Origin: a bacterium UBP9_UBA1432
GTDB lineage: Bacteria; Vulcanimicrobiota; Xenobia; Xenobiales; Xenobiaceae
DNA length: 36,018 bases
NCBI GenBank assembly: GCA_002329445.1
Contig: DCTU01000070.1
Location: forward strand, 13,883 to 49,900
Reading direction: 5' to 3'
Positions within the stretch are counted from its first letter, which is position 1, and every line of letters begins with the position of its first letter. The position numbers were made by a program, and so were the translations under genes. The notes beneath the pieces are model-generated. The model did no database searches, was not told the DNA's origin, and worked only from the letters and a program-made list of their open reading frames with translations. This document shows positions 7,443-36,018 of this stretch, in pieces.

Positions 7443-7510
7443 TTGCGATCGCCTTTCCGGATTCACGATGGATTCAGTCTTGTCTCTTGGGTTCGCCGTC
7501 CCGGCCCAGC

Positions 7511-8335
7511 TCAGGGGCCGGAGTCCGCCACCCTGAAACCGACGAAGAAGGTGAAGATCGGGGGTTTGCATCGGCTCCGGGTATCGGTCCTGAAGAACCC
7601 GGTGTGCCTGTAGGCCCACCCCCCACCGCGCAGCGAGACCTCGACCGGGTCGTCGTTGGCCTCCCGTCCGTCGTCGGCCCGGTAGGGATACGGATCAAAA
7701 GGCGAGGTGGTCCATTCGAAGACGTTTCCGGCGGCATCCAGCAGGCCGAAGGGAGACGCCCCCTCGGGGAACGAGCCGACGGGCAGGGTCCCCCGACCGT
7801 TGTGCACGGAGGCCATCCTGGCCATCAGCTCGGGGCGCTTCATGTCGCGGTTGTTGCACTTCTGGGCATCCCAGGTGTCACCCCACGGGAAGAGGCGGCC
7901 GTCCAGTCCTCGGGCGGCCTTCTCCCACTCAGCCTCGGTGGGAAGTCGCAGTCCGGCCCATCTGCAGTAGGCCTGGGCGTCGTACCAGGAGACGCTGGCC
8001 ACGGGGTGGTTCTCCAGGCCCGGCTTGAAGAGCTGGCGCCAGTTCCCCTCCGCCTGGTAACCCGTCGCCTGGACGAAGGCGGCGAACTGCCGGTTGGTGA
8101 CTTCGTGCTTGCCGATCCAGTAGGTGGGCAGGTTCAGGTCGAACCTGGGTTTGGAGTCGCGATACTCGTCGGAACCCATCACGAACTCGCCCGCCGGGAT
8201 CTCGATCAGGACCGAGCCGTCCCTGGGGTTGGTCCGCTCTTGGAGGGGGACGGGAACCTCCGGATCCGGGCTGCAGCCCGCCAGGAGGAGGAGCATGAGC
8301 GCCGTCACCAGGCCAGGCATCAGGATCGCCTTCAT
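7511..8335 (-). CDS. FGE-sulfatase-fold lipoprotein, paralog 2
   Basis: Internal ATG of the 7511..8980 ORF: MKAILMPGLVTALMLLLLAGC (lipobox LAGC). Motifs: YWIGKHEVTNRQF, NHPVASVSWYDAQAYCRWAGLRLPTEAEWEKAARG, GNVFEWT, VGFRVA. The start overlaps the upstream stop (ATGA at 8332-8335). Confidence 0.85.
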   Translation of the reverse strand: MKAILMPGLVTALMLLLLAGCSPDPEVPVPLQERTNPRDGSVLIEIPAGEFVMGSDEYRDSKPRFDLNLPTYWIGKHEVTNRQFAAFVQATGYQAEGNWRQLFKPGLENHPVASVSWYDAQAYCRWAGLRLPTEAEWEKAARGLDGRLFPWGDTWDAQKCNNRDMKRPELMARMASVHNGRGTLPVGSFPEGASPFGLLDAAGNVFEWTTSPFDPYPYRADDGREANDDPVEVSLRGGGWAYRHTGFFRTDTRSRCKPPIFTFFVGFRVADSGP

Positions 8336-9321
8336 TCCGACCGTGCCACCCGGAATCCCCAGGCATAGGTGGAACCGTAGTCCGGGGCCTTGACGCTGAC
8401 CGGTGGCGTGAGGGTACAGCGCGCGGGCCTGTCGTCCCAGGAGCCGCCGCACAGCATCCTCCAGTACCAGCCTCCGAATCCGTGGGGGTCCTTGGAGGGG
8501 TCTCCGGCCTTCCCCTGGTCCGAGCACCACTCGGCGACGTTGCCGATCATGTCCAGGGCCCCGCAGGGGCTGGCTCCTTCCGGGAAGAGGCCGGTCGGGA
8601 GGGGGCCCCTTCCGGCCGAGAAGTCGGCTCGCCACGACTTCCGTTTCTGGTCGGCAAGTTTGAAGTTGTTGCTGCGGTTCGCGTCCCATTCCTGGCCCCA
8701 GGGATAGGTCCGTCCGTCGGTCCCACGGGCAGCGCGCTCCCACTCGCGAATGGTGGGGAGCCTCAGTCCGGCCCACTTGCAGTAGGCGGAGGCTGCCCGC
8801 CACGAGGCGTAGACGACGGGGAAGTCGTCGCCCGACTTCTTGGCGTAGGTCTCCCAGACGTTGACGAAGGGGGCGTATCCCGTTTCGCGGACGAAGCGGG
8901 CAAACTGGGCGTTGGTGACCTCGAACTTGCCGATATAATAGCCTTCCAGGTGGATCTTCCGGGTCTTTCGTCCGGTCCACCCGCGCGCGTCTGGGGCCTC
9001 GGCTGCGAGGTAGTCCCCGGCCGGGATGTGGATCAGCACGGAACCGTCGGCAGCGAGGTATTCCCGGTACCCCTGCGGGTTCATTCCCTGGTCGCGGAGC
9101 GAGGGCTTCAGCTTCCGGTCGGGGAAGGCACAGTCGTCAGGACCAGGGACCCGTGGTCGGAGGTCCCGGAAGCCGGAGGCCCTGGCCTGCCCGCGCGTCG
9201 CCGGCGGGTCCACCTGCGATTCCTGTCGGGTCAGCCAGAACAGGTTGAGCAGGCCCAGCAAGGCCAGAAGCCAGCATGTGGCGCGCACCATGCGCTGTCG
9301 ACGCCCCGCCCCACCAAGCAT
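8332..9321 (-). CDS. FGE-sulfatase-fold protein, paralog 3 (signal-anchored, most divergent)
   Basis: From the 8332..9456 ORF. ATG at 9321 lies downstream of AAGGAG; ATG 9291 is an alternative start. Anchor MVRATCWLLALLGLLNLFW. Motifs: YYIGKFEVTNAQF, DFPVVYASWRAASAYCKWAGLRLPTIREWERAARG, GNVAEWC, WGFRVA. Confidence 0.85.
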   Translation of the reverse strand: MLGGAGRRQRMVRATCWLLALLGLLNLFWLTRQESQVDPPATRGQARASGFRDLRPRVPGPDDCAFPDRKLKPSLRDQGMNPQGYREYLAADGSVLIHIPAGDYLAAEAPDARGWTGRKTRKIHLEGYYIGKFEVTNAQFARFVRETGYAPFVNVWETYAKKSGDDFPVVYASWRAASAYCKWAGLRLPTIREWERAARGTDGRTYPWGQEWDANRSNNFKLADQKRKSWRADFSAGRGPLPTGLFPEGASPCGALDMIGNVAEWCSDQGKAGDPSKDPHGFGGWYWRMLCGGSWDDRPARCTLTPPVSVKAPDYGSTYAWGFRVARSE

Positions 9322-9402
9322 CGTTGGCCGCAGCTCCTTTGGAACTGGATTTGCGTCGATTATGCCTGAGGACGTGTCTGCTTGGCAAGGCTCGTCTTGC
9401 AT

Positions 9403-9445
9403 CCTGAATCCGCGGCCGAATGCCACGGCAGGTGGCGGATTCAGG
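9403..9445 (+). repeat. Palindromic intergenic repeat, copy A (REP-like)
   Basis: CCTGAATCCGC-GGCCGAATGCCACGGCAGGTG-GCGGATTCAGG: a perfect 11-bp stem with an inner GCCG/CGGC stem. The same core recurs at 19469-19511 and, inverted, at 22289-22341. Confidence 0.7.
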
Positions 9446-9518
9446 TGCATGCCCACGAAAAGGACGCGAACGCCTTCCGGGCTGGACCCTGGTCACCGCG
9501 AGCCGGACTGGATGGAGG

Positions 9519-10856
9519 CTACTCTTCGTGCGTCGGGCGGCGGAAGACGCTGAAGTAGTCCGTGTCGCGCGAGGTGACGCCCGGAGCCGGATTCTTGACC
9601 ACCTCCAGGCCGGCCTGCGAGACCTGCTGTTGAATGACGCGGGCATCGACGTTGCCGTCCCCGACCACCAGCAGGCCGCCGGGTCTGAGCGCGGTCCGGA
9701 CGGTGCGCAGCCAGGGCAGCAGGAATTCCCGGAAGTTCTTTTCTTCGGTGGGGTTGGAGATCGGGAGCATGGCATGGTAGGTCTCGATGACCGTGATCAG
9801 TTCCACCGATGCTGGCGGCAGGCTCAGTCGGCTCTTGGGCGTCAGGACGGTCTCGATATTCAGGGTTGGCCTCTCCGCGGCGGCAAAGGCCACGAAATCC
9901 AACACGCTCCGGTTGATGTCGACGGCGTACACCTTCCCGCGGGGGCCGACCTTCTCGGCCATGGGGAAGGTGAAGAGCCCCGGGCCGCAGCCGACGTCCG
10001 CGATGGTCTGTCCCTCATGCATTCCGGACACGGCGACCAGGTCGTCCCATCTCCAGGACAACCGCTCGGTCTCGGTAAATCCGTCCAGGATCATCATGTA
10101 GACCTTGTAGGACTGCTCGGCATCCCCCCTGTCGGGTCCCGGCGGGTGGTTCCTGCACCGGATTTCGCCGTTCTGCATGAGGTAATAGCTGTTGGCCTGG
10201 CTGGCCGGACAGTGGATGAGGCCCAGCGGAGATTCGGTTTGCAGGTCCTCGATTCGGGTCGGAAGGCGGCCAGAGTGGGCCGCCTCGTAGGAACGCAGCG
10301 CTCTTGCAAGCTGGTCGAGGCCGGCCTGGCACTCCATCCGCATCTGGTAGCGGATGGCGCCTTCGGGAACCCCCTGAGAGAAGAGAAAGCGGTAGTGGGG
10401 GGCGGCGAAGACTCCTTCGGCGATGAGCTTGTCGCGCTGGGAGGTGTCGCCCAGTTGCTCGCGGCACCAGGCATCGAACGGAAGGCTCGAGCGGACATAG
10501 AGGTTGTCGGAGAGTTTCTGCAGGCTGCGGAGCCTCTCGGCCGCCTGCAGCAGGTCTTCCTTCTTCTTGGACTGTTGGAAGTCGATCAGGGTGCGGACGG
10601 CGGAGTAGTAGGCGTCCCGGGATCGGATCAGCTCTTCGATCGGAACATCCCCGAACCGCCCGCCCTTGAACAGGGGACCGGTGGTTTCGGGAGGGGCCAG
10701 CCGCCTCACCTCGGGAAGGTCGCTGGCCGGGTGATCCCCCGCGGTGGGCTGGTGGGCCGGAGAGGCCTGCCGTGACCAGCGACCGACGAGTTGAACCCCC
10801 AGCAGGAGGGCCATCAGCAGGGTGACCAGGAGGATTCGTTGTTGGGTTGGTTTCAT
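9519..10856 (-). CDS. Signal-anchored protein with C-terminal class I SAM-dependent methyltransferase domain and ~270-aa N-terminal domain of unknown function
   Basis: Internal ATG of the 9519..10952 ORF: MKPTQQRILLVTLLMALLLGVQLVG. Methyltransferase motif I IADVGCGPGLFT, post-I KVYAVDIN, later LRPGGLLVV. Confidence 0.8.
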   Translation of the reverse strand: MKPTQQRILLVTLLMALLLGVQLVGRWSRQASPAHQPTAGDHPASDLPEVRRLAPPETTGPLFKGGRFGDVPIEELIRSRDAYYSAVRTLIDFQQSKKKEDLLQAAERLRSLQKLSDNLYVRSSLPFDAWCREQLGDTSQRDKLIAEGVFAAPHYRFLFSQGVPEGAIRYQMRMECQAGLDQLARALRSYEAAHSGRLPTRIEDLQTESPLGLIHCPASQANSYYLMQNGEIRCRNHPPGPDRGDAEQSYKVYMMILDGFTETERLSWRWDDLVAVSGMHEGQTIADVGCGPGLFTFPMAEKVGPRGKVYAVDINRSVLDFVAFAAAERPTLNIETVLTPKSRLSLPPASVELITVIETYHAMLPISNPTEEKNFREFLLPWLRTVRTALRPGGLLVVGDGNVDARVIQQQVSQAGLEVVKNPAPGVTSRDTDYFSVFRRPTHEE

Positions 10857-11093
10857 CGCGAGAGACTCTTCCAGGGGGCGGATTCCAAGATTCCCCGGGG
10901 CCGCCCCGGCCTGGTCCCAATTCTGCGGGAGGACCGGCGTCCCGGGACGCACGTGGAGGGACAGGGTGCGGCGCAGGGATTCGGAGGAGTCACGAGGGGG
11001 TCCTCCTGGGTGTGATCCCGGGTCCCAGAGACCAGGAGGTCGCGACAGGGCTTGAGCCCCCGACCGCGTATTGCCGGATCAGGAGTCTTCTCG

Positions 11094-11993
11094 ATGAAAA
11101 ACAAGGTCCGTTCCGTGGGGTTGGTTCTGGCAGTCGCCGCACTTCTGGCCTTGGCGGCATGGAGCCTGGCTCGTCAGCAAGGCCACAGGGGTGCCGCATC
11201 GGTTGATCTCCGCTATCTGCGGACGAACGCCTGCGGGTTCCGGGAGTACCTCAACCCCAAGGATGGTTCGGAGATGGTCCTGATCCCGGCAGGTCGCTTC
11301 CTGATGGGGAGCGAGACCCTGGATGAGACCCGTCCCCAGCAGCAGGTCGACCTGGACGCCTTCTGTCTGGGGAAGCACGAGGTGACCAACGCCCAGTTCC
11401 AGAGGTTCCTGGAGCAGACCGGGCACCAGCTCCTGGCCAGCCGCTGGGACCTGCACTACGAGCAGGGCCTGGAGGACCATCCCGTCGTCTACGTGAGCTG
11501 GTTCGACGCCGCAGCCTATTGTGCGTGGGCCGGGGGGCGTTTGCCGACGGAGGCCGAGTGGGAGAAGGCGGCCCGGGGACCGACCGGTCTGCCGTATCCC
11601 TGGGGCCAGGACTGGGACAAGAATCGCTGCAACAACCTGGACATGGAGGACCCGAACCTGGTCGAGAAGATGGCCGAAATGGACGTCGGGCGGGGCACGA
11701 CGCCCGTCGGATCCTTTCCGTCGGGAGCAAGCCCCTACGGGGTGCTGGATCTGTTGGGCAACGCCATGGAGTGGTGCTCTTCCATCTACCAGGACTACCC
11801 CTACCGAGCCCAGGACGGGCGCGAGGCGCCGGATCCCAAAGCCTTGCGGGTCCTGCGGGGAGGTTGTTGGTACCATCAGGAAGACACCATGAATGGTTTC
11901 TATCGGGACAAGTCCACGCCAGAATACTGGTATTTCTACAATTACGTCGGATTCCGGGTGGCCATGCCGGCGCCGGAGGAAACCACGCCCTGA
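11094..11993 (+). CDS. FGE-sulfatase-fold exported protein, paralog 4
   Basis: ATG lies 8 nt after AGGAG (11081-11085): MKNKVRSVGLVLAVAALLALAAWS. Motifs: FCLGKHEVTNAQF, DHPVVYVSWFDAAAYCAWAGGRLPTEAEWEKAARG, GNAMEWC, VGFRVA. Confidence 0.85.
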   Translation: MKNKVRSVGLVLAVAALLALAAWSLARQQGHRGAASVDLRYLRTNACGFREYLNPKDGSEMVLIPAGRFLMGSETLDETRPQQQVDLDAFCLGKHEVTNAQFQRFLEQTGHQLLASRWDLHYEQGLEDHPVVYVSWFDAAAYCAWAGGRLPTEAEWEKAARGPTGLPYPWGQDWDKNRCNNLDMEDPNLVEKMAEMDVGRGTTPVGSFPSGASPYGVLDLLGNAMEWCSSIYQDYPYRAQDGREAPDPKALRVLRGGCWYHQEDTMNGFYRDKSTPEYWYFYNYVGFRVAMPAPEETTP

Positions 11994-14042: not shown

Positions 14043-14086
14043 GGTGTCCGGCGACACCGATTTCGGGGCCGGTTTCGACGTAGAAT
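14043..14086 (+). promoter_or_regulatory. Candidate Crp/Fnr-type (class II geometry) promoter in the crp-porin divergent region: GGTGTC-cggc-GACACC (14043-14058) plus TAGAAT (14081-14086)
   Basis: Same palindrome, same GACACCGAT flank and same GTAGAAT box as 3992-4034. The centre lies 30.5 nt upstream of the -10 box, 83 nt from the regulator's own start codon and ~160 nt from the porin start. Confidence 0.45.
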
Positions 14087-14212
14087 CTCTTCGACCGTGC
14101 CGGTGCGAATCTTGGCGTGCCAGGACCACCGCGCGGGTTCATTGTCCGCGCGCCCTGCCACATGGCCCGAGCGAGCGGACCGACCCAAGATTGCTTGAAT
14201 CGGGAGCATCTC

Positions 14213-16846
14213 GTGCACCTCTGGCCCTCCATGACAAGCTGGAAGCACCGCCGGCCGGCGTGCGTCCGCCCGAACCATCCTGCATGTCCCCTGGGGGGGA
14301 CGGCCCTTGTGGCTCTCCTGCTCCTGCTGGCCGTCGCGTTCCCCGCTTGGGCGGCGCCGGTCCTGCCCGACGTCCCGGAGGCCCACTGGGCTCGAGACGC
14401 GGTGGCCTCGCTGGTGGCGAGGGGGCTGATCGAGGGATACCCGGACGGCACATGGAAGGGTGACCGGGCCGCCAGCCGCTGGGAAATGGCGCTCCTGCTG
14501 GCCCGCCTCCTGGCCAGGGCCGAGCAGGACCACGCCACCTTCGCAACGCTTCGGGACCGCGAGGAGATCCGGAAACTGGCGACCGCCCTGGGCGAGGAGT
14601 TGGAGGCCCTGGGCGTGCGCACGACCGCGCTGGAACAGTCCGCGGCCCGACTGGACCGGAGGGTCGCCGAACTGGAGCGCATCACCTTCTACGGATCGGT
14701 GGATGCCCGCTTCGTGGCCCAGACCTTCACCAACACCGGAGTGTCGGACAACGACAACGGGCGGGCGGGGGGCGGCCGGGCTGCCGGAGTGCCCTACGTG
14801 GACTACAACAGCGCGGTGGGCAGTGCGGTCGGCCCGCGGATGCGACCCCAGACCCACGGCGTGCTGCCGGTGGTCGATTATCAGCGAGGTCGGGCCCTGA
14901 CCAACGGAGCCGGCTTCACCAGCCGCGCCATCCTGGGCCTCCAGGTCAAGGTCTCCGCCGACCTGGACGCCGGGGCCGAGTTCGCGGCCTATACGTCTCA
15001 GGGGGACGCCAATGTCGACGGCTACTGGGGCGTCAACCCTCCCTTCCTGGCCGGGCCCAGCGGTGCCAACGCGGGCACGGGGGGAGCCCAACCCCTGAAC
15101 AACCAGCCCTACACGCGCCTGGTCCTGGACCACTTCTGGGTGCGCCACAACCCTTCCAAGACTCGGATCCATCTGGGCGCCGTCGAGAAGACCCGCCTGG
15201 ACCCGCTGGTCTTCCTGGGGCAGAGCAACCTGTGCGTCTACGGTCCACCGCGCCTTCCCGGGTACGGTTTCGACGTGACGGGCGAATCCGCTCTGAGCGC
15301 GGGCAGCGTCCTGGAGTGGGAAGCGCTGGGGACCCGGACCGGTTCAGGGAACGCCTACCAGGGCATGAACTACCTGCACCAGAACCTGGGTGCCACCCTG
15401 GGCTGGAGGTTCTCGGAGGGCCGGGGTCTGGTTCGAGCCAACTTCGTCCGCAACTTCGATGAGGCCCCTCCGGGCGGCCCGCTGGTCGTGGGCCTGGTGA
15501 CGGGCGCCAACGTCCGCTATGGCGCCTCCTCCGGATGGAACCCGCTGCAATGGGTGAACCCTCCGGGCCATTTCGCGGCCCAGCGCAGCGCCATCGAGCA
15601 GGGCAATCCTGCCGTGGCGGGCGGCGTCTTCATCCCCAACACCATCGACACCCGGCCGATCCCAGGCTGGAATCCCGCGGCCGACAACGCCCTGGGCATC
15701 ACCACCGGTGGAGGCAACTTCGGTCCGCAGGATCAGACCCTGGTGGGCTTGTCGGTGCGCCATGAGTGGAAGCTCGAGGGCCAGGACTCGCTACGCGTCA
15801 AAGGGGAGTGGGCTCTGAGCGACTACAAGTCCAGTCGCAACTCCAGCCACAGTGCCCAGGGCCAGGCCGTCCGGCTGGAGGTGGGCGGGAAGACGCTGCA
15901 GGGGAACCTGGATCTGTCCGCTTTCTACCTGAACGTGGATCCCGATTACGGGCCCATGTCCTTCAGCAGCAACCTGCTGGGGTTCCGTTCGCCGTCCACC
16001 TACGCCTTTGCGGGGCGCTTCCATCTGCACGACTTCAAGAACTATCCGCACAACCGGCAAGGATGCGGGATCAAGGGCACGTGGAGCTTCGATCAGGGCC
16101 GTGGGCGGGTGGGTCTCAACGCTTCCTGGCTGGAGCAGGCGCGCACATCCCTGTACGACGTTCGAGCGCTGCCCGGCTCGGTCGGAGTCGGCACTCCGAA
16201 CTACCCCGTGCTGGGCTTCTCGCCGGGCTTCATCGACTACGTCTTCTCGGGTTATGCCCACCCTTTGCAGTATGGGATCAACTCCGGCTCGTCTTTTGAC
16301 GACGCGCTGCGGCCCTTGGAGGACGTTCGTGGTCAGGAGAGAGGCTATGGGCTGGTGGTGTCCCACCGCTGGGAAGATCCCAAGGTGGGAGCCGAACTCC
16401 GCTACAACCGCACGGATCTGGTTCGGCCCTCGACTCTGGCAGCCGACTTCGGCGGCAGCCAGAACCAGGTCGATCTGGGGATCGATGCCTGGCATCTGGA
16501 AGCCAACTGGGATCTGACCGATCACTGGACGTTGCTGGGAGGCCTCGACCGCATCGCCGTCAGGGGACACCACGACCCGGCAGGCCTCTACAACAGCTAC
16601 GCCGTGGCCCACAACAGCGTCGGCTTCGTCAACGTCGACTCGACGCAGACGGTGCCGTACCTTGGGGCCCAGTTCCGTCTGGCCAAGGACAGCCTGTGCG
16701 AGCTGGTCGTCAGTCACTACGACACCCGGGATGGCGTTCCGGCCTCGGTCACCGCGGGTCAGGGAGCCGACTCCCGCGGGGCCACGGCCCACGCCTTCAA
16801 CTGGGGCGGTTGGCAGATCCAGACCCACTTCCAGACGAAATTCTGA
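14213..16846 (+). CDS. SLH-domain outer-membrane porin (SLH + coiled coil + large beta-barrel, C-terminal Phe)
   Basis: From the 14117..16846 ORF. GTG 14213 lies 6 nt after GGGAG; ATG 14231 is an alternative start. Signal peptide ...ALVALLLLLAVAFPAWA. SLH motif LPDVPEAHWARDAVASLVARGLIEGYPDGTWKGDRAASRWEMALLLARLL. Coiled coil EEIRKLATALGEELEALGVRTTALEQSAARLDRRVAELE. Gly/aromatic-rich alternating barrel region ending HFQTKF. Confidence 0.85.
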   Translation: MHLWPSMTSWKHRRPACVRPNHPACPLGGTALVALLLLLAVAFPAWAAPVLPDVPEAHWARDAVASLVARGLIEGYPDGTWKGDRAASRWEMALLLARLLARAEQDHATFATLRDREEIRKLATALGEELEALGVRTTALEQSAARLDRRVAELERITFYGSVDARFVAQTFTNTGVSDNDNGRAGGGRAAGVPYVDYNSAVGSAVGPRMRPQTHGVLPVVDYQRGRALTNGAGFTSRAILGLQVKVSADLDAGAEFAAYTSQGDANVDGYWGVNPPFLAGPSGANAGTGGAQPLNNQPYTRLVLDHFWVRHNPSKTRIHLGAVEKTRLDPLVFLGQSNLCVYGPPRLPGYGFDVTGESALSAGSVLEWEALGTRTGSGNAYQGMNYLHQNLGATLGWRFSEGRGLVRANFVRNFDEAPPGGPLVVGLVTGANVRYGASSGWNPLQWVNPPGHFAAQRSAIEQGNPAVAGGVFIPNTIDTRPIPGWNPAADNALGITTGGGNFGPQDQTLVGLSVRHEWKLEGQDSLRVKGEWALSDYKSSRNSSHSAQGQAVRLEVGGKTLQGNLDLSAFYLNVDPDYGPMSFSSNLLGFRSPSTYAFAGRFHLHDFKNYPHNRQGCGIKGTWSFDQGRGRVGLNASWLEQARTSLYDVRALPGSVGVGTPNYPVLGFSPGFIDYVFSGYAHPLQYGINSGSSFDDALRPLEDVRGQERGYGLVVSHRWEDPKVGAELRYNRTDLVRPSTLAADFGGSQNQVDLGIDAWHLEANWDLTDHWTLLGGLDRIAVRGHHDPAGLYNSYAVAHNSVGFVNVDSTQTVPYLGAQFRLAKDSLCELVVSHYDTRDGVPASVTAGQGADSRGATAHAFNWGGWQIQTHFQTKF

Positions 16847-26838: not shown

Positions 26839-27151
26839 GTGTTCGCCCCTTGGATGAAGGTTCGCGTGGCGCGCGAGGTCGCGCAGCCCGGAGCGGGTCG
26901 AAACCCGGCTTCCAGAGTTCCATCGCGGCCCCCTTCCTCCCTGCCTTGGAGTCGCGACCAGGAGGAGGAGACGGGGGCCTCCTCCCCTGGAGGTCGAGGA
27001 AAAACTCCCTGTTCATGGGAATCGTGGCGAAATGGCAACAAAACGCTAGACCGCGCGGGAGCCCCGGGGGATAGGATCCTTGGGGGAGGCCTGCGCGCCC
27101 CTGGTCCAGTTCTTCCGCACCCTCCGGCCTCCCTCGAGAAGGAGAATCCTC

Positions 27152-28216
27152 ATGTCCGACCAGACCAACCCGCAGCGCGAGATCGACAGGCGTCCCATCC
27201 GACGCCTGGAGATCCGCCCGCTCGGCGAGGGCGCCTCTGCGGATCAAGAGCGATTCGAGACCGTCCTGACCGATCCCACCTCGCAATCAGCCGGAGAGCC
27301 GGCGTTGCATGCACCGGCTCCTCTGGATCGGGAGGAAACCGAGTCTCCGGGTGCCGGAAGGGTGCGCCCCCGGGCGGCGCATGACCGCTTCACGACCACG
27401 CTGGCGGTGCTGCTGTTGCTGGGCGTCTCCCTTCTCGGTCTGGTGCTGGTCCGCTCCGCCGGCCTGCCTCCGGGCCAGGAGGCTGTCGAGACCGCCGTCT
27501 CCGGATCCGCTCCAGCACCCCTCGCTCCCGCTGCGTATTCCGTTGCTCCGCTGCCGGTCTATCCGGTGCCCGGGACCTCCTCGGCGTCCTCCTCGGTCTC
27601 GCCCATCCCCATGGCACGACAGCGGCAGGCTCCCCGCCCGGATCCGGCCCCCGCCCGGACCGACTCGGTGGTGCAGACCCCTTCCTCCGTCCTTTCCGAA
27701 GAGTCGTCGGCGCAGGCCCCGGCCGACGACAAGCCGGTCCCTGCGGGAGAGATCGAGCAGGAGACCCCCCCGGCGGTTGAAGCCTTCTCGGCGGATTCCG
27801 AAGCGCAGGCTTCCCAGCCTCAGGCGGCTGCGCCGGCGCCCCGGCAGGTCCAGCCGGGTCAACCCGTTCGCCTGGCCCCGGGGCACTCCGCGTCAGCGGC
27901 TGCGCGGCCTGGAAGGCCGGATGTGGTGATGTCCGCCCTGCAGGAGGCGAAGCCTTCCACGGCTTCAAAGCCTCCGGCCCGGCAGGTGTCTCTCCCGCCT
28001 CGTCCGACCCTGCGCCCCCTCCCGCCGGATTCCCAGGTTCCACGTCAGGTGGCCTCGGCCACGGGCTTGAACGTCCCCTTGCCCTGGACGGTGCAGGCCC
28101 CCGCTCCCTCCCAGGCTGCCGAGAAGAGATCCGGCACCTCGGAGGCACCACGCTCCCTGGCCACCTACCTGGCCAATCCCTGGTTGCTGTTGCCTCCGCT
28201 GCGGGGCGAGCACTGA
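27152..28216 (+). CDS. Hypothetical single-pass membrane protein with long Pro/Ala/Ser-rich low-complexity region
   Basis: ATG lies 7 nt after AAGGAG (27139-27144), with GC3-biased codons. TM: TTTLAVLLLLGVSLLGLVLV. The rest is low complexity, with no recognisable domain. Confidence 0.55.
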   Translation: MSDQTNPQREIDRRPIRRLEIRPLGEGASADQERFETVLTDPTSQSAGEPALHAPAPLDREETESPGAGRVRPRAAHDRFTTTLAVLLLLGVSLLGLVLVRSAGLPPGQEAVETAVSGSAPAPLAPAAYSVAPLPVYPVPGTSSASSSVSPIPMARQRQAPRPDPAPARTDSVVQTPSSVLSEESSAQAPADDKPVPAGEIEQETPPAVEAFSADSEAQASQPQAAAPAPRQVQPGQPVRLAPGHSASAAARPGRPDVVMSALQEAKPSTASKPPARQVSLPPRPTLRPLPPDSQVPRQVASATGLNVPLPWTVQAPAPSQAAEKRSGTSEAPRSLATYLANPWLLLPPLRGEH

Positions 28217-29487: not shown

Positions 29488-30054
29488 TCAGGGCGGCCCC
29501 GCCAGCATGTTTCGGACCAGGACCACCTGGGAGACCCGGGCCTGCTGGAGGTGAACCGTCAACTCCCCGAAGGCCACCTCCTGGCCGGCTTCTCGGGGGA
29601 CCTGGCGCCAGGTCCAGGAATCTGGGGTCCGTTGTGAAGGTGGACCGAAGAGCCGCTCGACCACCTCGGGCGGGTCTCCAGGACGGATCAGCACCGTTTC
29701 GCCCAGCAAGAGCGGGTGCTGCTCGGCCATGATCGACAGGACCCGCCCGTCCTGGTCCAGGACCACCACGACCATGCCCTCTTGCCCAGGAGTCCGGTAT
29801 TCCAGCGTCTGGAAGGCACCGAGTCGGCTCCGTTCGGTCGGCTCGCCCAGGGTTTCGAGCACGGCGGCCTCGCCCTGCTCCAACCAGACCCCGGCCAGGA
29901 CCAGCGGCGGCGAAGACCGGGCCGACGGGGTGGGCGCGGGCGAGGCGACTTCGGGTATGCGGTCTCCCCACTGCAGGCCCCATCGGGCCAGCAGCGAGAC
30001 CGCCACCAGGACCAGGGCCAACTCCAGGAAGCGGACAAGCCGTCGGGCGTTCAT
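29488..30054 (-). CDS. Small N-terminally anchored hypothetical protein, last gene of the nuclease module
   Basis: Internal ATG (MNARRLVRFLELALVLVAVSLLARW...) of the 29488..31695 ORF, overlapping the upstream stop as ATGA (30051-30054). It has two G-x5-V-x3-(L/F)G-x-P segments (GEAAVLETLGEPT, GDPPEVVERLFGPPS). Confidence 0.6.
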   Translation of the reverse strand: MNARRLVRFLELALVLVAVSLLARWGLQWGDRIPEVASPAPTPSARSSPPLVLAGVWLEQGEAAVLETLGEPTERSRLGAFQTLEYRTPGQEGMVVVVLDQDGRVLSIMAEQHPLLLGETVLIRPGDPPEVVERLFGPPSQRTPDSWTWRQVPREAGQEVAFGELTVHLQQARVSQVVLVRNMLAGPP

Positions 30055-32387
30055 GGAGGAGTTTTCGACGAGGTTCGCTCCAGGACCCTGTGCAGCCCTG
30101 GCAATCCGGAGCGCCCATGGAGTTGAGTCCTGGGGGAGGCACCTGTCGGAGGCGTTCGCCTGGATTCTTGCAGGGGCCGGCAGCATCCGGCCTGCTGGTA
30201 GCCCGCCGCAGCGGCCTCGGCCGCGTCCTTGAACACGGCCGTGCAGTTCTTGCAGTCGTAGTTCCGGCACCCGGGGCGGTGGACGACCATGCTCCGGGTG
30301 TTTCCGTGCAGGGGGCCGGCGGCGTCGGGGGACTCTGGGGGCGCGGAGGCGGCGTCGCTCGGGGCGGTCGGTTCCGGAGGCAGGGACGTGGCTCGGGGTT
30401 GGCGTGCGAGGCGTCGGAACTCCCAGGGGGGCACGGGGCTGGCCTCCTCCCACAGTCCGATGCGCTGGACGCGGGCCCGCGTCTCGGCGCTGGCCAGCGC
30501 GGCCTCGCTGGAGTACTCCTTGGAGTGCCAGGCGTGGCCGGCCTGGACCAGGGCCAGGTTCAGATCGACCCCGTCCACGAAGACCCGCCCCAGGGTTCGA
30601 CCGTAGCGGTCCAAGCCATGGCTGCGGATTTCGAGGTCCCTGCCCAGCACCCGATCGGCCGTGAAGCGTTGGGCTTCTGGTCCGCCGACCTGCCCGGACT
30701 CCGGGCAGTCGACCCCTTTGAAGCGCACCTCCAGCACGCGGTTCGGCCAGGCGCGGACCCAGATGGTGTCGCCGTCGGTGACGCTCAGGGCCTCGGCCCG
30801 GAAGGTGGCCCCCGGCCGCGTCACGCCCCAGGCGAACCAGGCCCAGCCGACCACGAGGAGCAGCGACGCCAGGACGGCGGCCATCCCGACCCTCCTCCAG
30901 GAGTGGGAGGGTCGGGCCCAGGTGGCGCCTGGATCCGGAAGCGTGGCCGGGTCGTCGGGCTCGTCCGGAACCGCCCGGCGCTCTGCTGCGGTCCCTCGCC
31001 AGCGCTTCAGCGCTTGGTAGGTGGCCCATCCTGCCGCCACCGAGAGGACCAGCCCCAAGGCCAGCCACTCCGGCGAGGCCTCCGGCGGAGGCAGGCTGGC
31101 ACCTTCCAGTCGCAGGGCGCTGGCCACCTCGGCCGAGCGCCCCGAGAAGAAGAGGATCGTGGGCACCAGGAAGAAGCCCATGGCCTGGGCGCGCCGGGCA
31201 CCCGAGAGGGGGGCGACCAGGCCCAGGAGGCTGGCCGCGGCCAGGAGGATCAGCCCCCAGAAACCGGTGGTCCAGGCCACCAGCAGGACCAGGAAGACCA
31301 GGGTGGCCCCGTTGAGCCCTCCCGGATGCAGGTGGTTGATCAGGCGGGCCAGCCTCAGGCCGTTGCCTCTCAGCACCTGCTGGCATACCAGTCCCGCCGC
31401 CAGCATGGCCAGCCCCAGCGTCAGGAGTTGGCCCCGGCCGGGCTCGGGGAAGAAGGTCTCCAGGGCCGCCGAGGCTCCGCTGCGCGAACGCGCCAGAAGC
31501 GCCAGGGCGGCGATTCCGAACAGGGCATCCGAGAGGTTGATGGAGGAGACCATCACCAGGTAGCGGCGCCCGGAGGATTCGGTCTCGGGGCCGCGTCGGC
31601 GCAGCGAGGCCAGGGCCGCGGCGTTGCCTGCGCCGAGGCCGGGCAGGAGCCCCACGGCCATCCCTCCCAGGAGGCCCGCCAGGGCCGCACCCCAAGGAAC
31701 GTGGGAGGGGAGGGCCGTCTCATCCTGTCGGGGCAGGCTGGCGCCGGGATCCCGCAGGGCCAGCAGCAGGCCGGCTGCACCGAAGAGCCCCGTCAAAGCT
31801 GGAAAGAGCGCCCCGAATGCGGCCCCTTCGCCAGGGGACAGGGGGCTGGCGAAGACGACCAGGCCCAGAAGCCCGCTGGCCAGGAAGACGACCAGGGCCC
31901 AGCCGCTCCTCTGGTCGGTGGCGATCAGGAGAAGCGAGATCCCCGCCAACAGCCAGCCCATCCAGGGGCGCAGCAGGCCATCCACCGACGAGGCGAGCGG
32001 AAGGCCCCTGGCCTCCAATGCCAGGAGTCCGGCCACCATGGCCAACCCCAGGACCAGACCCCACATCGCACCGGAAAGGGTGTAGCCCAGGGCCTCCAGG
32101 CCTCGCCCCCGGCGGACCAGGCGATGGGCAGGCAGAAGGGCGTAGGCCTCGTCGGATGGGACTCCGAGGAAGAGCGAGGGCACCGCCTCGAAGAAGGCGT
32201 GGGCCACCGCAGCCGTCACGACGCCGACGGCCGCTGCCAGGGGGGGCACACCCAGGCTTGTCCAGACGGGGGCCGAAGCGGCCAGAAGCGCGGCCGCGAC
32301 GTTCACATGCAGGCCAGGGGTCAGGCCGCTCAGGATGCCGGTGGCCATTCCCACCACGAAGGCCATCACCAGGGCCAGCGGCTCCAT
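30051..32387 (-). CDS. Fusion protein: TctA/DUF112-like polytopic membrane domain + thermonuclease (SNase) domain + Ada-like Cys-rich C-terminal tail
   Basis: ORF track, 778 aa. ATG lies 9 nt after GGAGG. Two G-L-x-PGL repeats (GILSGLTPGLHVN; VGLLPGLGAGN) sit in ~12 hydrophobic helices (aa 1-520). SNase motifs: VTDGDTIWV, VRFKGVDCPE, DRYGRTLGRVF, ALVQAGHAW. Tail: HGNTRSMVVHRPGCRNYDCKNCTAVFKDAAEAAAAGYQQAGCC. Confidence 0.8.
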   Translation of the reverse strand: MEPLALVMAFVVGMATGILSGLTPGLHVNVAAALLAASAPVWTSLGVPPLAAAVGVVTAAVAHAFFEAVPSLFLGVPSDEAYALLPAHRLVRRGRGLEALGYTLSGAMWGLVLGLAMVAGLLALEARGLPLASSVDGLLRPWMGWLLAGISLLLIATDQRSGWALVVFLASGLLGLVVFASPLSPGEGAAFGALFPALTGLFGAAGLLLALRDPGASLPRQDETALPSHVPWGAALAGLLGGMAVGLLPGLGAGNAAALASLRRRGPETESSGRRYLVMVSSINLSDALFGIAALALLARSRSGASAALETFFPEPGRGQLLTLGLAMLAAGLVCQQVLRGNGLRLARLINHLHPGGLNGATLVFLVLLVAWTTGFWGLILLAAASLLGLVAPLSGARRAQAMGFFLVPTILFFSGRSAEVASALRLEGASLPPPEASPEWLALGLVLSVAAGWATYQALKRWRGTAAERRAVPDEPDDPATLPDPGATWARPSHSWRRVGMAAVLASLLLVVGWAWFAWGVTRPGATFRAEALSVTDGDTIWVRAWPNRVLEVRFKGVDCPESGQVGGPEAQRFTADRVLGRDLEIRSHGLDRYGRTLGRVFVDGVDLNLALVQAGHAWHSKEYSSEAALASAETRARVQRIGLWEEASPVPPWEFRRLARQPRATSLPPEPTAPSDAASAPPESPDAAGPLHGNTRSMVVHRPGCRNYDCKNCTAVFKDAAEAAAAGYQQAGCCRPLQESRRTPPTGASPRTQLHGRSGLPGLHRVLERTSSKTPP

Positions 32388-32388
32388 G

Positions 32389-34893
32389 TCAGGATTCCTC
32401 CGAGACGGAGCGGACCACCAGGGAAGGCTGCCCGTTGTAGCGGTCGGTCCGGCCCTCGATCCGCAGGACGCGGCCGGATTCCAGGCGGCGGCGATCCAGG
32501 GGGGTTGTCGCGGCCTCGAACATGATGCCCTCCACCTGCGCGGTCCCGTCGTCCAGGACGAACTTCAGGTGGAGAGCGTTGCGGTTCCGGCTGCGGTGCT
32601 CCCAGATGCGGTGGACCCGGGCCGTCACGGCCACCTGGATGCCCTTCGGCATCGCGACGATCTCGGCCACCGTCGAGACGGGGACATCCTGGACGCCCTT
32701 CTCGAGGACCTGGAGATGGCCTCGGGTCAGCGGCAACAAGAAGGATCTCTTCCGCCAGACTCGGGGGATGGCCACCACGCTCACCCGGTCCCCGGAGCGG
32801 ATCGGTGGATCGACCAGGCCCAGGCGCGGCGAGAGCAGGACGGTCTGTGCGCCCTGGTCGGTCTTGATCGTGATCATCGCTCCATTGCCGGCGGTGGTCC
32901 GGGAATGGCTCACCCGGCCGATTCGGGTCACGGCGCCTGGTGGGGGCGGGGAGCTCCGCAGGCGCTCCATCTCCTGCTGGTGGCCCCACCACAGAGCGCC
33001 GCACAGGGCCAGGCTGGCCAGCAGGGCGGGCCAGGGGGACCAGGCGGGATCCTCGTCCCCGGCCGTCCTCGGCCGCAGCCACCCTTCCAGCCATCGGGGC
33101 AGCCGCCTGGAGGAGGTCGCGCGGCCGGTCCGGGCCTGCTCAGGGGCCTCTTCGCGAAGCGTTTCCTCCACGTGGGCCAGGGCCCGCAGTCGGGCGCGGG
33201 CCAGGGCCAGGAGGCCCTCCCGGGTGGCGCGGCGGAAGCCGTCCAGGACACGATGGCGGTCCTGGTCGGGCGGGGGGAGCCGTTGCCAGGCCGCGTAGGC
33301 GTACTCCAGGGGAACCTGGGAGCTGAAGCGCGCGGCACCCTCGTAGCAGGTGCCGTCGGGGAGATGGCCTTGGTTGTCGAAGAGGCGGGGCCGGAACTCC
33401 TGATCCAGTGGGCGGCCCTCGAAGGTCCAGTCGAACCCCATCTCCCGCGTCACCTGGGGCAGGGAATGGCCGAGAAACCCCAGGTTGTAGCGGCGGTCGA
33501 CCTCCTCGGCCAGGAAGGAGATCCGGCTCCGTTGAGGGGTCAGGAGTCGGGCCAGGAAGGGGTGCCCCTGAGGCTTTGCATTTCGGGTCAGGGCATTCTG
33601 CAGGGTCTTGAGGTCTCGTCGTCCGTACAGGAAGACCTGGACGGGCCCCGTCGTCTCCGGGGCACACGCCTCCAGGGCCTCTTCCAGCGCCGTCGCCCAA
33701 TCCTTCAGCAAGGCCTGCTCCTCTTCGGCGCCTGGCGGGGTCTGGGCCAGGCGCACCACCTCCCGGCGGGTCTGGGGGCCGACGACCAGGGCTCCCAGCA
33801 GGTAGACCCGATCCTCCAGATAGTCCCACCAGGCCTCGAGGAAGACCTGAACCCGTCCCGGGTGGGTCGGGCCGACCGGCAATCGGCTGGCCTGGGGGCC
33901 CTGAAGCCAGGAGCGGGCCTCCATGTCGGGGTCCAACCTGTGAGCGACCGCCCGGGCCCTCTGGATGTGCAGGTCCAGGTCGGTGCCCAGGGCCTCTCCG
34001 GCGCTCAGGGCGGCCACCTGGGCGGCGTGCTCGGAGGGGGTGCGCAGGGTCGCGTCGGGCTGCTCCTCCGGAGCCAACTCCTTCAGGGCGGCCAGCTCCT
34101 CGACCCGCGTGATCCCAAATCGGGTCAGGATGTCCTGCTCGCTGGCGCCCAGGAAGGGCACCAGCGCGAGGCTGCGGGTCTCGAAGGCCTCCCGCATGCA
34201 CAGCGCGTTGTAGGGGCAGCCCTCGCATCGCCGGGTCAGGTGGATTCGAGCCTCCTCGCGGGCGGCCCGGGCCATCCGCCAGGCCACCCCGCTCGGGGCC
34301 TCGACCATCTCCTGCACGGTCCGTCGAGAAGGGAGCAGATCGAAGGCCGTCGGCTGGTCGGACCTCCGTTCCGGCAGGCGCCACACCGAGCCCTTCAGGC
34401 GGGCTTCCAGGCTCTCTCCGCGGGTCATCTGCTCCAGCAACTCGCAGTAGATGGCCACCTGCACGCGGTGCTCGAGCCGGTCCCTGCGGCTGGCCTTGAT
34501 GTCGATCACGTGCAGGTCCACGGCTTTGGGGCTGCGTCCGCGGATCTGCACGATGTCCGCCCGGCCCCCGCAGGTGAACTCCCCCAGCGTTCCCCGCACG
34601 GGGGCCTCCACCAGGGTGACGGCCTCGCCGGATCGCAGGTGTTCCAGGGTGTCCTCGGGCGAGCCTCGGCGAAGGTCCACCACTCGGTGCCCCTGGCCTT
34701 CCAGGATCCGGTGGCAGGTCACCTCCCGCTCGGCTCCTCGCACCGACAGGAGGGGAGTCAGGAACTGCTCGGCCAGGTTCCAGCGCTCGAAGAGCCCGCG
34801 GGTCTCCGGAGGGTGGAGCCGATACCAGAGGAAACGCGCGCAGGACTCGAGCCGGAGGAATCCGGTCAGGTCGGTCGGGGCGAGATGGCGCAC
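32389..34893 (-). CDS. Multidomain nuclease: Cas4/RecB-like PD-(D/E)xK domain with 4Fe-4S Cys motif + HhH + RNase-H-like domain (TM0106-family-like), then a TM helix and C-terminal OB-fold
   Basis: ORF track, 834 aa (GTG start). C18 ... C223-x2-C226-x5-C232. GRADIVQI (D113), VIDIKAS (D131/K133), QVAIY. HhH-like LGASEQDILTRFGITRVEELAAL. RVQVFLEAWWDYLEDRVYLLG is the RNase-H-like start. Hydrophobic WSPWPALLASLALCGALWW. OB-like VAVTARVHRIW...LKFVLDDGTAQVEGIMF...GRVLRIEGRTDRYNGQPSLVV. Confidence 0.8.
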   Translation of the reverse strand: MRHLAPTDLTGFLRLESCARFLWYRLHPPETRGLFERWNLAEQFLTPLLSVRGAEREVTCHRILEGQGHRVVDLRRGSPEDTLEHLRSGEAVTLVEAPVRGTLGEFTCGGRADIVQIRGRSPKAVDLHVIDIKASRRDRLEHRVQVAIYCELLEQMTRGESLEARLKGSVWRLPERRSDQPTAFDLLPSRRTVQEMVEAPSGVAWRMARAAREEARIHLTRRCEGCPYNALCMREAFETRSLALVPFLGASEQDILTRFGITRVEELAALKELAPEEQPDATLRTPSEHAAQVAALSAGEALGTDLDLHIQRARAVAHRLDPDMEARSWLQGPQASRLPVGPTHPGRVQVFLEAWWDYLEDRVYLLGALVVGPQTRREVVRLAQTPPGAEEEQALLKDWATALEEALEACAPETTGPVQVFLYGRRDLKTLQNALTRNAKPQGHPFLARLLTPQRSRISFLAEEVDRRYNLGFLGHSLPQVTREMGFDWTFEGRPLDQEFRPRLFDNQGHLPDGTCYEGAARFSSQVPLEYAYAAWQRLPPPDQDRHRVLDGFRRATREGLLALARARLRALAHVEETLREEAPEQARTGRATSSRRLPRWLEGWLRPRTAGDEDPAWSPWPALLASLALCGALWWGHQQEMERLRSSPPPPGAVTRIGRVSHSRTTAGNGAMITIKTDQGAQTVLLSPRLGLVDPPIRSGDRVSVVAIPRVWRKRSFLLPLTRGHLQVLEKGVQDVPVSTVAEIVAMPKGIQVAVTARVHRIWEHRSRNRNALHLKFVLDDGTAQVEGIMFEAATTPLDRRRLESGRVLRIEGRTDRYNGQPSLVVRSVSEES

Positions 34894-34965
34894 GGTTCCA
34901 GGCGCTTCGCGAACCAGGACCCGAGTCCCCTGCGGGGAGGCGTGGGAACTGCTGGGAAAGCGGGA

Positions 34966-34990
34966 GGGGCAGGTCGGCAGGACCTGCCCC
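34966..34990 (-). terminator. Perfect 10-bp hairpin after the PTS gene (likely terminator separating it from the nuclease module)
   Basis: GGGGCAGGTC-N5-GACCTGCCCC. On the minus strand it is followed by TCCCGCTTTCCC. It begins 30 nt after the PTS stop (35020). Confidence 0.45.
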
Positions 34991-35019
34991 TCCGGGGGCC
35001 ATGTCGACCTGAACCCGGC

Positions 35020-36018
35020 TCAGCCCTGCATGGCGGCGGCGGTGGCCTCGGCCTGGCCGACCCCGACCAGCAGGTGCAGCGTGTCCGGGTGCACCTGCAT
35101 CAGGCCGATGCCGGCGGCCTTCAGGGCTGCCTGGTCCACCTTGGCGGCGTCCACCAGGACCACCCGGACTCGGGTCAGCGCGGTGGGGGAGACCTCGCGC
35201 AGGTTCTCTCGTCCGCCCAGGGCGTCCAGCAGCATCCGGGCCCGCTCGGCCGACTCGGGGGTGATCTGCACGGGCTCGGCCTTCGCGGTCGCCGAGGGGG
35301 CTGTCGGGGCGACCGCCATCGGCTGGTCCGAACCCGTCGAGCGCAGGAACTCCTCGATGTCGGTCTTGAGGTTCTCGGACATGGTCCCAAAGATGGCCTG
35401 CAGGCCGTTGCCTACCTGGACCACGCCGGCAGCCCCCAGGGCCTTCAGGCGGTTGGGGTCGGCCTTGCTGATGTCGACCAGGCCCACCCGCAAACGGGTG
35501 ATGCAGGCGTCCAGGGCGGCGATGTTCCCTCGGCCACCCAGGGCCAGGACCACCTGGGCCGGCAGGCTTCCGGCCTCGGCGGCAGCCCCCGTCGCGGCGG
35601 CGGCCAGGTCGGTGTCTTCGCGGCCCGGGGTCTTGAGGTTGAAGCGGGTGATCAGGAAACGGAAGACGCTGTAATAGAACACCGCGTAGATGGGACCCAG
35701 GATCAGCACCAGCCACGGCTTGGTGTCCTTCGCGAAGTACAGCACGTAGTCGATGAATCCGTGCGAGAAGGTGTAGCCCAAGCGGCCACCCATCTCGTAC
35801 ATCAGGACGAATCCGATGCCGGCCAGCAGGGCGTGGACACCATACAGCAGCGGGGCCACGAACAGGAAGGCGAACTCGATCGGTTCGGTGATGCCCGTCA
35901 AGAACGAGGTCAGGGCCGCCGAGATCATGATGCCGAAGACCTCGGCGCGGCGCTCCTTCTTTGCGCAGTGCCAGATGGCAATGGCCGCCGCCGGCAGGCC
36001 CCACATCTTGAACAGGAA
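35020..36018 (-). CDS. PTS glucose/N-acetylglucosamine-family EIIC-EIIB component, N-terminus beyond the right window edge; carries a second, Cys-less EIIB-like domain
   Basis: The 35020..36006 ORF continues to the window edge ([12 protein letters not shown]...). EIIC end: [29 protein letters not shown] active-site motif [19 protein letters not shown]. Second copy: [20 protein letters not shown]. Confidence 0.85.

Follow-up and report, generated by a model that had tools for sequence, protein, structure and literature searches.

What might be the role of three tightly packed genes that join two unrelated nuclease chemistries to an OB fold and a permease-like membrane domain? The question is raised by genes A, B, and C in a 36,018-nucleotide stretch of contig DCTU01000070.1 (assembly GCA_002329445.1, positions 13,883 to 49,900) from the bacterium UBP9_UBA1432 (Vulcanimicrobiota), which we call the window and to which all positions refer. 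A first-pass annotation of the window had treated the three genes as one envelope module matching no described system, had noted a formal likeness to the DNA-uptake channel ComEC, and had offered both trans-envelope DNA capture, degradation, or uptake and anti-phage or anti-plasmid defense as readings. Our preferred reading, to which we give a probability of about one half, is that the locus is the bacterial counterpart of an archaeal OB/TctA-like/thermonuclease machinery and serves ComEC-independent DNA capture, processing, and import; here two fusion proteins look to take the place of the archaeal-type trio, and a further nuclease is added at the cytoplasmic face.

An OB/TctA-like Gene Pair Recurs across Bacteria and Archaea

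We scanned one genome per species and analyzed the loci with phmmer and jackhmmer. In all 22 bacterial loci, which span at least 10 phyla or classes, a gene for an OB protein homologous to residues 601-834 of A ends -15 to +68 nt from the start of the TctA-like gene on the same strand, and the same coupling is found in at least 21 of 56 archaeal loci (those with enough upstream sequence). The bacterial carriers include Acidobacteriota, Binatia, Rhodothermales, Thermodesulfobacteriota, Glaciecola, Crocinitomix, Exiguobacterium, Deinococcaceae, Vulcanimicrobiota, and Anabaenopsis. The gene directly 5' of TctA::SNase in distant genomes encodes a protein of 230-360 aa with an N-terminal transmembrane (TM) anchor and two OB folds, and the internal hydrophobic helix of A can be aligned, column by column, with the TM anchors that 35 such stand-alone OB partners have at their N-termini. 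No gene families other than OB and TctA-like are conserved in the neighborhoods of these loci. We therefore take the conserved unit to be a two-gene cassette, in which a single-TM-anchored tandem-OB protein is encoded directly upstream of a TctA-like membrane protein. The three-gene module first proposed keeps its A(OB)/B pairing in this survey and loses its third member: the unit that persists is the OB protein with the TctA-like protein (often TctA::SNase), and C is missing or replaced in three of four related genomes.

Fusion of the SNase domain to the TctA-like protein is seen in most bacterial loci, with about 15 non-redundant examples, and a separate adjacent gene encodes the SNase in loci L013 and L025 and in the archaeal locus L029; no SNase was found within 7 kb of the pair in L011, L020, and L028. 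TctA::SNase fusions are far more widespread than the architecture of A. Among 72,556 plasmids searched with tblastn there was no canonical tctA even at E<=10, and the sole matches were two members of this subfamily, both cyanobacterial. One of the two plasmids, pPg_03 of Pseudanabaena galeata CCNP1313, carries the pair (L093:2907-5401) as WP_281009940.1, annotated as hypothetical, and WP_281009941.1, and the other, from Cylindrospermopsis, has a TctA-like gene. The pPg_03 pair adjoins a RelE/ParE toxin gene and topA, and its host is a cultured cyanobacterium. A profile search with the OB alignment against a set of 5.8 billion proteins gave 6 matches, its word prefilter being limiting and Methanococcus lying outside its reach.

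The Same Families Are Required for Archaeal Transformation

A transposon screen in Methanococcus maripaludis found natural transformation to depend on MMJJ_13020, MMJJ_13030, and MMJJ_16440 (Fonseca et al. 2023, PMC10133366). MMJJ_13020 is a single-TM OB-fold protein, the adjacent MMJJ_13030 is TctA-like and has 11 TM helices, and MMJJ_16440, also required, is a lipoprotein thermonuclease (PMC10133366). In-frame deletion of MMJJ_13020 or MMJJ_13030 abolishes transformation and complementation restores it, and deletion of the TctA-like gene of Methanoculleus thermophilus likewise abolishes it (PMC10133366). Because archaea are without ComEC, TctB, and TctC, the authors suggest that the DNA transporter so far missing in archaea is the TctA-like protein (PMC10133366). 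This TctA-like protein with its OB neighbor is the sole candidate for the DNA transporter of archaeal transformation, on genetics from one study.

The locus in the window shares with the M. maripaludis trio the same three Pfam families, the OB-then-TctA-like order, the single TM helix of the OB protein, and a membrane-attached SNase: in A and B, PF01970 occurs without TctB or TctC, and the single-TM OB protein is encoded 1 nt upstream of it. Along its entire length, the TctA-like domain of B is similar to TctA-like proteins of archaea that are OB-linked, with E values of 1e-41 to 1e-56. The C-terminal part of A together with B would supply the same three functions as the archaeal trio in the same gene order, and the two sets are presumably orthologous. 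The differences are that the host here is a bacterium, that the SNase is fused to the TctA-like protein via two extra TM helices, that the OB domains are in tandem, where many archaea have a single one, and that a cytoplasmic Cas4-like/RNase H-like stretch of 600 aa extends the OB protein. The statement that the combination is wholly undescribed fails on the archaeal trio, published in 2023 (PMC10133366), which is of a kind barely characterized and of which the bacterial pair with its fusions is a variant. The literature on TctA-like proteins in DNA uptake that we found comprises only this archaeal paper and its preprint, and in the literature searched we found no description of the bacterial distribution of the pair, of the SNase fusion, or of the cytoplasmic nuclease(-helicase) fusion.

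Gene A as a Lineage-Specific Chimera

The exact sequence of protein A has no database record, and few homologues share its architecture; they form five clusters, at 63-93% identity. The next-best matches are proteins of ~1280-1330 aa that combine a PD-(D/E)xK nuclease with a superfamily 1B (SF1B) helicase, the helicase region resembling DNA2/Upf1, and that cover only the first ~68% of A. These DNA2-like/TM0106-type proteins, which also have an RNase H-like domain and are annotated as "AAA domain-containing", are 30-46% identical to residues 1-570 of A and have the nuclease and Fe-S residues in common with it; A differs in having lost the helicase and gained a TM helix and two OB domains. The sister genome L005 (GCA_032941855.1) encodes, 1 nt upstream of its TctA::SNase gene, a 1554-aa protein that joins PD-(D/E)xK, SF1 helicase, TM helix, and OB, and this form, with its TctA::SNase coupling, is present in two independent assemblies. 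BLAST aligns A 3-606 with residues 33-643 and A 619-832 with residues 1340-1552 of the 1554-aa homologue, so that A is the same chimera minus ~700 aa of helicase, with the deletion scar at about residues 606-619, just upstream of the TM helix. Gene A is thus a chimera found in the UBP9 lineage only, in which a cytoplasmic nuclease(-helicase) was joined to the anchor of an OB protein; its helix 619-637 is the signal-anchor kept from an ancestral OB protein that stood alone, and its nuclease part derives from the free-standing nuclease-helicase family.

Free-standing relatives of the N-terminal part of A sit beside GmrSD/SLFN, DEAD helicase, NYN, HNH, PIN, and integrase genes. One of them, a 1281-aa homologue with helicase in a Gaiellaceae metagenome-assembled genome (L090:1-17846), has as neighbors a GmrSD_N + SLFN_AlbA_2 gene, a gene for a 1262-aa DEAD helicase, a gene for an NYN protein, and a second gene combining PD-(D/E)xK, RNase_H_2, and SF1 helicase. 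The nuclease-helicase family to which it belongs may be an undescribed component of defense islands.

Domains, Conserved Residues, and Predicted Topology

The domain assignments of the first-pass annotation hold up. Pfam identifies PDDEXK_1 (E 6e-9) and the OB family tRNA_anti-codon (PF01336, E 1e-8) in A, and TctA (E 1e-35) and SNase (PF00565, E 6e-18, 65.6 bits against a cut-off of 21) in B. Family alignments show D113, D131, K133, Q145, Y149, C223, C226, and C232 of A to be invariant and C18 to be conserved at >=90%, in keeping with a PD-(D/E)xK nuclease that carries a Cas4-type cluster, and the catalytic and Fe-S residues are all retained in six diverged homologues (63-93% identity). The nuclease segment has the lowest ratio of nonsynonymous to synonymous substitution rates within A (dN/dS 0.25-0.43), that is, the strongest constraint. 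AlphaFold2 models residues 1-583 of A at a pLDDT of ~90, and Foldseek matches this model to Cas4 SSO0001, human Exo5, ACE1, and RNase HI with weak E values (~2e-3) and probabilities of 0.98-1.0, the nuclease domain matching Protein Data Bank (PDB) entries 4ic1, 7lw7, and 9iab. The RNase H-like domain is supported by the model and by these weak-E-value matches to RNase HI; the relative in L090 carries PF13482. The first acidic position of the RNase H-like motif (D353 in the family) is E or Q in the clade of A in the motif alignment, and catalytic competence of this domain is uncertain.

We considered whether A is a CRISPR Cas4, but its scores against TIGR00372 (23.2 bits, cut-off 65) and PF01930 (16.3 bits, cut-off 22.7) are below threshold and there are no cas genes in the window, although its fold and its Cys and DEK motifs are Cas4-like. 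Membership in the TM0106 family of RecB-like nucleases was likewise rejected (TIGR03491, 43.2 bits against a cut-off of 97.45, and over residues 128-327 only), although A resembles that family in combining PD-(D/E)xK with an RNase H-like domain.

The SNase domain of B, claimed to have a complete catalytic set, is invariant at D538, D540, T541, R555, D560, E563, and R597 in family alignments; it is matched by PDB profiles at E 1e-18, and its AlphaFold2 model superposes on S. aureus nuclease with a Foldseek target TM-score of 0.83. The TctA-like domain is under the strongest constraint in the locus (dN/dS 0.18-0.28), and PDB sequence searches returned no relative of it. The C-terminal Cys-rich mini-domain of B, predicted to be extracytoplasmic here, scores 24.2 bits against the "sunset domain" model NF051437 of NCBIfam (cut-off 27) and is modeled at a pLDDT of ~85-89, and homologues of B have a weak precomputed match to PF27542 (ArfC). 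NCBIfam ribosomal-protein models named "sunset domain variant" (L17, L4, L20, and S2) match the mini-domain more weakly.

The charges that flank the helices suggest how the two proteins are oriented. The single hydrophobic helix of A (619-637) is R-rich on its N-terminal side, which by the positive-inside rule would place the nuclease in the cytoplasm and the OB folds outside, and the R-rich loop between the two extra TM helices of B would by the same rule place the SNase outside the cytoplasmic membrane.

Other Systems with Partial Likeness

ComEC of bacterial uptake combines OB, channel, and nuclease, with the ComFA helicase beneath (PMC12663950), and YhaM is an OB-containing nuclease (PMC12107432). 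With ComEC/ComFA/ComFC the locus shares an extracytoplasmic OB, a polytopic conduit, and a nuclease, to which the L005 form adds a cytoplasmic helicase at the inner face; it differs in having a TctA-like membrane domain, an SNase, and, in L005, an SF1B helicase of the DNA2/Upf1 type in place of the DEAD-box ComFA. The resemblance is one of analogy and not of homology, and Pfam finds neither a competence domain (PF03772) nor a metallo-beta-lactamase domain in A, B, or C. The PF01970 membrane domain of B is shared with TctABC transporters, from which the locus is set apart by an anchored OB protein as partner; a canonical TctABC system was rejected, as no TctB or TctC occurs among the scanned open reading frames (ORFs) of the window or in the conserved neighborhoods of related loci. 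YhcR of Bacillus subtilis and Nuc/Nuc2 of Staphylococcus aureus share the extracytoplasmic Ca2+-type SNase, and YhcR has a PF01336-type OB partner; they differ in being wall- or membrane-anchored proteins that have neither a transporter-like domain nor an OB gene coupled to theirs.

A Model of DNA Import and Its Rivals

In the mechanism we propose, the tandem OB domains of A, anchored by one TM helix on the outer face of the cytoplasmic membrane, would bind incoming DNA; the SNase of B, set outside by its two extra TM helices, would cut or strip it; the TctA-like domain of B would conduct the product, either single-stranded DNA or oligonucleotides, through the membrane; and the Cas4/Exo5-like Fe-S nuclease, with the RNase H-like domain, would be tethered inside by the TM helix of A and process the emerging product. 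The SF1B helicase of the sister lineage would occupy the same inner position, as ComFA does under ComEC. We favor this reading because the OB-TctA-like coupling extends across bacteria and archaea, SNase fusion or adjacency is recurrent, the archaeal genes have a transformation phenotype, TctB and TctC are absent, L005 encodes a nuclease-helicase-OB chimera, the nuclease residues are invariant, and the R-rich flanks are consistent with the required topology. That an SNase is repeatedly fused or adjacent on the outside, and that in one lineage a DNA nuclease(-helicase) is fused on the inside, argues from comparison alone, and independently, for a role of the pair in handling nucleic acids. We infer the topology by the positive-inside rule only, as well as the transported substrate and the role in this bacterium. 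The earlier suggestion of ComEC-like capture, degradation, or uptake across the envelope gains real support from the match in family and gene order to the archaeal transformation trio.

More tentatively, the pair (with SNase) could be a second, ComEC-independent DNA import machine common to archaea and many bacterial phyla, in which case the UBP9 fusions would reveal a DNA2-like cytoplasmic nuclease-helicase partner that pulls in and trims the strand. If the pair does import DNA, it would constitute a second widely distributed uptake route, and the genome-based prediction of competence would change. The pair is widespread in bacteria, and its cultured carriers, among them Exiguobacterium algae S126, Anabaenopsis elenkinii CCIBt3563, and Pseudanabaena galeata CCNP1313, are open to genetics and biochemistry.

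Several observations weigh against DNA import. Some of the bacteria that carry the pair belong to groups that have ComEC, so that it may have a redundant or a nutritional role there. Only one narrow clade has the nuclease(-helicase) fusion, and the free-standing relatives of the N-terminal part of A do not adjoin TctA-like genes. AlphaFold2 confidence is low for the TM/OB third of A because the alignment is shallow, and S. aureus nuclease entries crowd the Foldseek list for the full model of B, leaving its TctA-like domain uncharacterized by fold. The putative link to the MMJJ proteins is drawn from Pfam families, gene order, topology, and similarity to other archaeal OB-linked TctA-like proteins. 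TctA belongs to a family whose members carry small anions and are not known to form a DNA channel; the archaeal study shows that transformation requires the genes and not that they transport DNA, and with piliation unexamined an indirect role is possible (PMC10133366).

The main rival, which we consider rather unlikely, is extracellular nucleic-acid scavenging, in which the surface SNase would break extracellular DNA or RNA down into 3'-nucleotides or oligonucleotides of short length, the OB protein on its anchor would serve in the manner of a substrate-binding protein, and the TctA-like carrier would import small anions as a source of phosphorus, nitrogen, and carbon, the N-terminal nuclease of A being a passenger or salvaging imported oligonucleotides. 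SNase gives small products, OB and SNase are found together in the secreted nutritional nuclease YhcR (one archaeal OB homologue is labeled "YhcR"), and the locus lies among metabolic genes (phosphotransferase system [PTS], pfkB kinase, and amidohydrolase), with no competence genes among them. TctA, too, forms the membrane part of importers that take up organic anions with the help of a binding protein (PMC10133366). The archaeal mutants, however, no longer take up intact replicating plasmids, a loss that import of mononucleotides would leave unexplained; the stable DNA2-like nuclease-helicase fusion of L005 suggests a polymeric substrate inside the cell, and the pair also occurs in the three loci with no SNase within 7 kb.

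Anti-phage or anti-plasmid defense, in which membrane-tethered nucleases would destroy invading DNA and the effector would be the N-terminal part of A, with its defense-type nuclease-helicase ancestry, is a weaker rival and improbable in our judgment. The defense- or mobile-looking neighborhoods of the free-standing relatives speak for it, and the chromosomal slot is variable in relatives, with PemK upstream and IS66 downstream in L005 and SNF2, methyltransferase, and SLFN/AlbA genes downstream in L004. The PADLOC matches, however, are weak and limited to Cas4, SNc, and generic SF1 helicase models, with no PADLOC-DB v2 system among them, which leaves the neighborhoods of the free-standing relatives as the one support for the defense reading first suggested; OB and TctA-like genes stay together as a two-gene cassette while the chromosomal setting varies across bacteria and archaea, with defense-type genes a few kb away in some cases, for example Mrr_cat and AAA_15/DUF4276 in L007 and split integrase ORFs in L008, and an extracytoplasmic Ca2+ nuclease would be unable to tell self from non-self as known systems do. 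Least probable of all, we think, is an accidental chimera, in which loss of a stop codon let a neighboring nuclease-helicase gene read into the OB gene and the added part has since been in decay, leaving only OB/TctA::SNase functional. Such an accident would fit the clean loss of the helicase (A 3-606 and 619-832 against the 1554-aa form), the E or Q in the RNase H-like motif, and a fusion that would come at no topological cost, the OB anchor having its N-terminus in the cytoplasm, but not a nuclease that is the most constrained part of A and keeps its catalytic and Fe-S residues in six homologues.

Locus Layout, Gene C, and Neighboring Genes

The G+C content of the window is ~68-72%, and its closest match is a contig of the bacterium UBP9_UBA6111. 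Genes A, B, and C are tightly packed 3' of the hairpin listed in Table 1, and all three are under purifying selection (dN/dS 0.18-0.6). The close packing described in the first-pass annotation is confirmed by the sequence: the TGA stop of A is followed by one base and then by the ATG of B, with GGAGGA 10 nt upstream of this ATG, and ATGA at 30051-30054 overlaps the stop of B with the start of C. The 1-nt gap between A and B recurs in four related contigs, and the claim that the three genes form one operon is supported. The hairpin is also real, its perfect stem being slightly larger than the 34966-34990 first given. The 80-nt stretch that holds it folds at -39.6 kcal/mol (z = -2.9 against shuffles); it is without a clear U tract and was unlisted by a simple T-tract terminator scan, and it is probably a transcription boundary.

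Table 1. Coordinates of the genes, predicted domains, and hairpin in the window
Feature	Position	Strand	Description or evidence
Gene A, 834 aa	32389..34893	-	Chimera: cytoplasmic nuclease, one TM helix, extracytoplasmic tandem OB (sides of membrane predicted)
A 1-240, Cas4/Exo5-like PD-(D/E)xK, C...CX2CX5C cluster	34174..34893	-	Pfam PDDEXK_1, invariant residues, Foldseek, dN/dS
A 241-583, RNase H-like (DnaQ/RNase_H_2-type) and helical region	33145..34173	-	AlphaFold2, Foldseek, motif alignment
A 619-637, hydrophobic helix WSPWPALLASLALCGALWW, R-rich N-terminal flank	32983..33039	-	Alignment with OB-partner anchors, flank charges
A 650-834, two tandem OB folds, predicted outside membrane	32392..32946	-	Pfam PF01336 at 754-830; homology to stand-alone partners
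Gene B, 778 aa	30051..32387	-	TctA-like domain, two extra TM helices, SNase, Cys-rich mini-domain
B 1-425, TctA-like (PF01970) polytopic domain	31113..32387	-	Pfam E 1e-35; dN/dS; archaeal matches
B 439-523, two extra TM helices (~441-461, ~500-522) around R-rich loop	30819..31073	-	AlphaFold2 helices, charge counts
B 526-660, SNase, full Ca2+/catalytic set	30408..30812	-	Pfam, PDB profile, Foldseek, invariant residues
B 690-735, Cys-rich "sunset"/ArfC-like mini-domain (HRPGCRNYDCKNC...GYQQAGCC)	30183..30320	-	NCBIfam NF051437 below cut-off
Gene C, 188 aa	29488..30054	-	N-terminal anchor, P/S linker, ~130-aa domain
Hairpin, GC-rich, 13 bp	34963..34993	-	Between PTS EIICB gene stop (35020-35022) and gene A; sequence and fold

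Pfam, NCBIfam, and PADLOC give no family match for gene C, and a set of 1.84 billion representatives holds only 4 homologues of it. It is limited to the window and one close relative, UBA6111, against whose copy its dN/dS is 0.33, and it is absent or replaced in L003, L004, and L005. C is thus a real gene, a lineage-restricted accessory that lies outside the conserved module.

The contig L004 (ERZ2931041), whose A homologue is 93% identical, has a copy of B that is 40 aa shorter, and downstream of TctA::SNase (L004:14739-22511) gene C and pfkB are replaced by an 87-aa ORF and genes for an SNF2-family helicase (963 aa), an N6/N4 DNA methyltransferase (1071 aa), and an SLFN/AlbA_2 + HATPase_c_4 protein; the replacement looks like the insertion of a defense-type island. 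In L005, a PemK toxin gene with a small upstream ORF (L005:2694-3304) precedes the 1554-aa gene and IS66 transposase genes follow TctA::SNase (L005:10665-13067), so that the slot between the PTS gene and pfkB appears variable in the lineage.

Elsewhere in the window, three paralogous genes of the FGE-sulfatase family (formylglycine-generating-enzyme-like), at 6525-7694 (-), 8335-9492 (-), and 11016-11990 (+), surround a 519-aa gene with an S-adenosylmethionine-methyltransferase domain at 9522-11078 (-). A 378-aa low-complexity ORF rich in P, A, and S at 27080-28216 (+) has no family match; its counterpart in L001 and L003 is a 354-aa gene without Pfam matches that adjoins pfkB, and it is overlapped by a 690-aa antisense ORF of a kind expected at such G+C. 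A 920-aa protein encoded at 14084-16846 (+) has an N-terminal SLH domain, which hints at attachment to an S-layer or outer envelope, as is typical of some diderm Terrabacteria, and bears on where the SNase and the OB domains are located.

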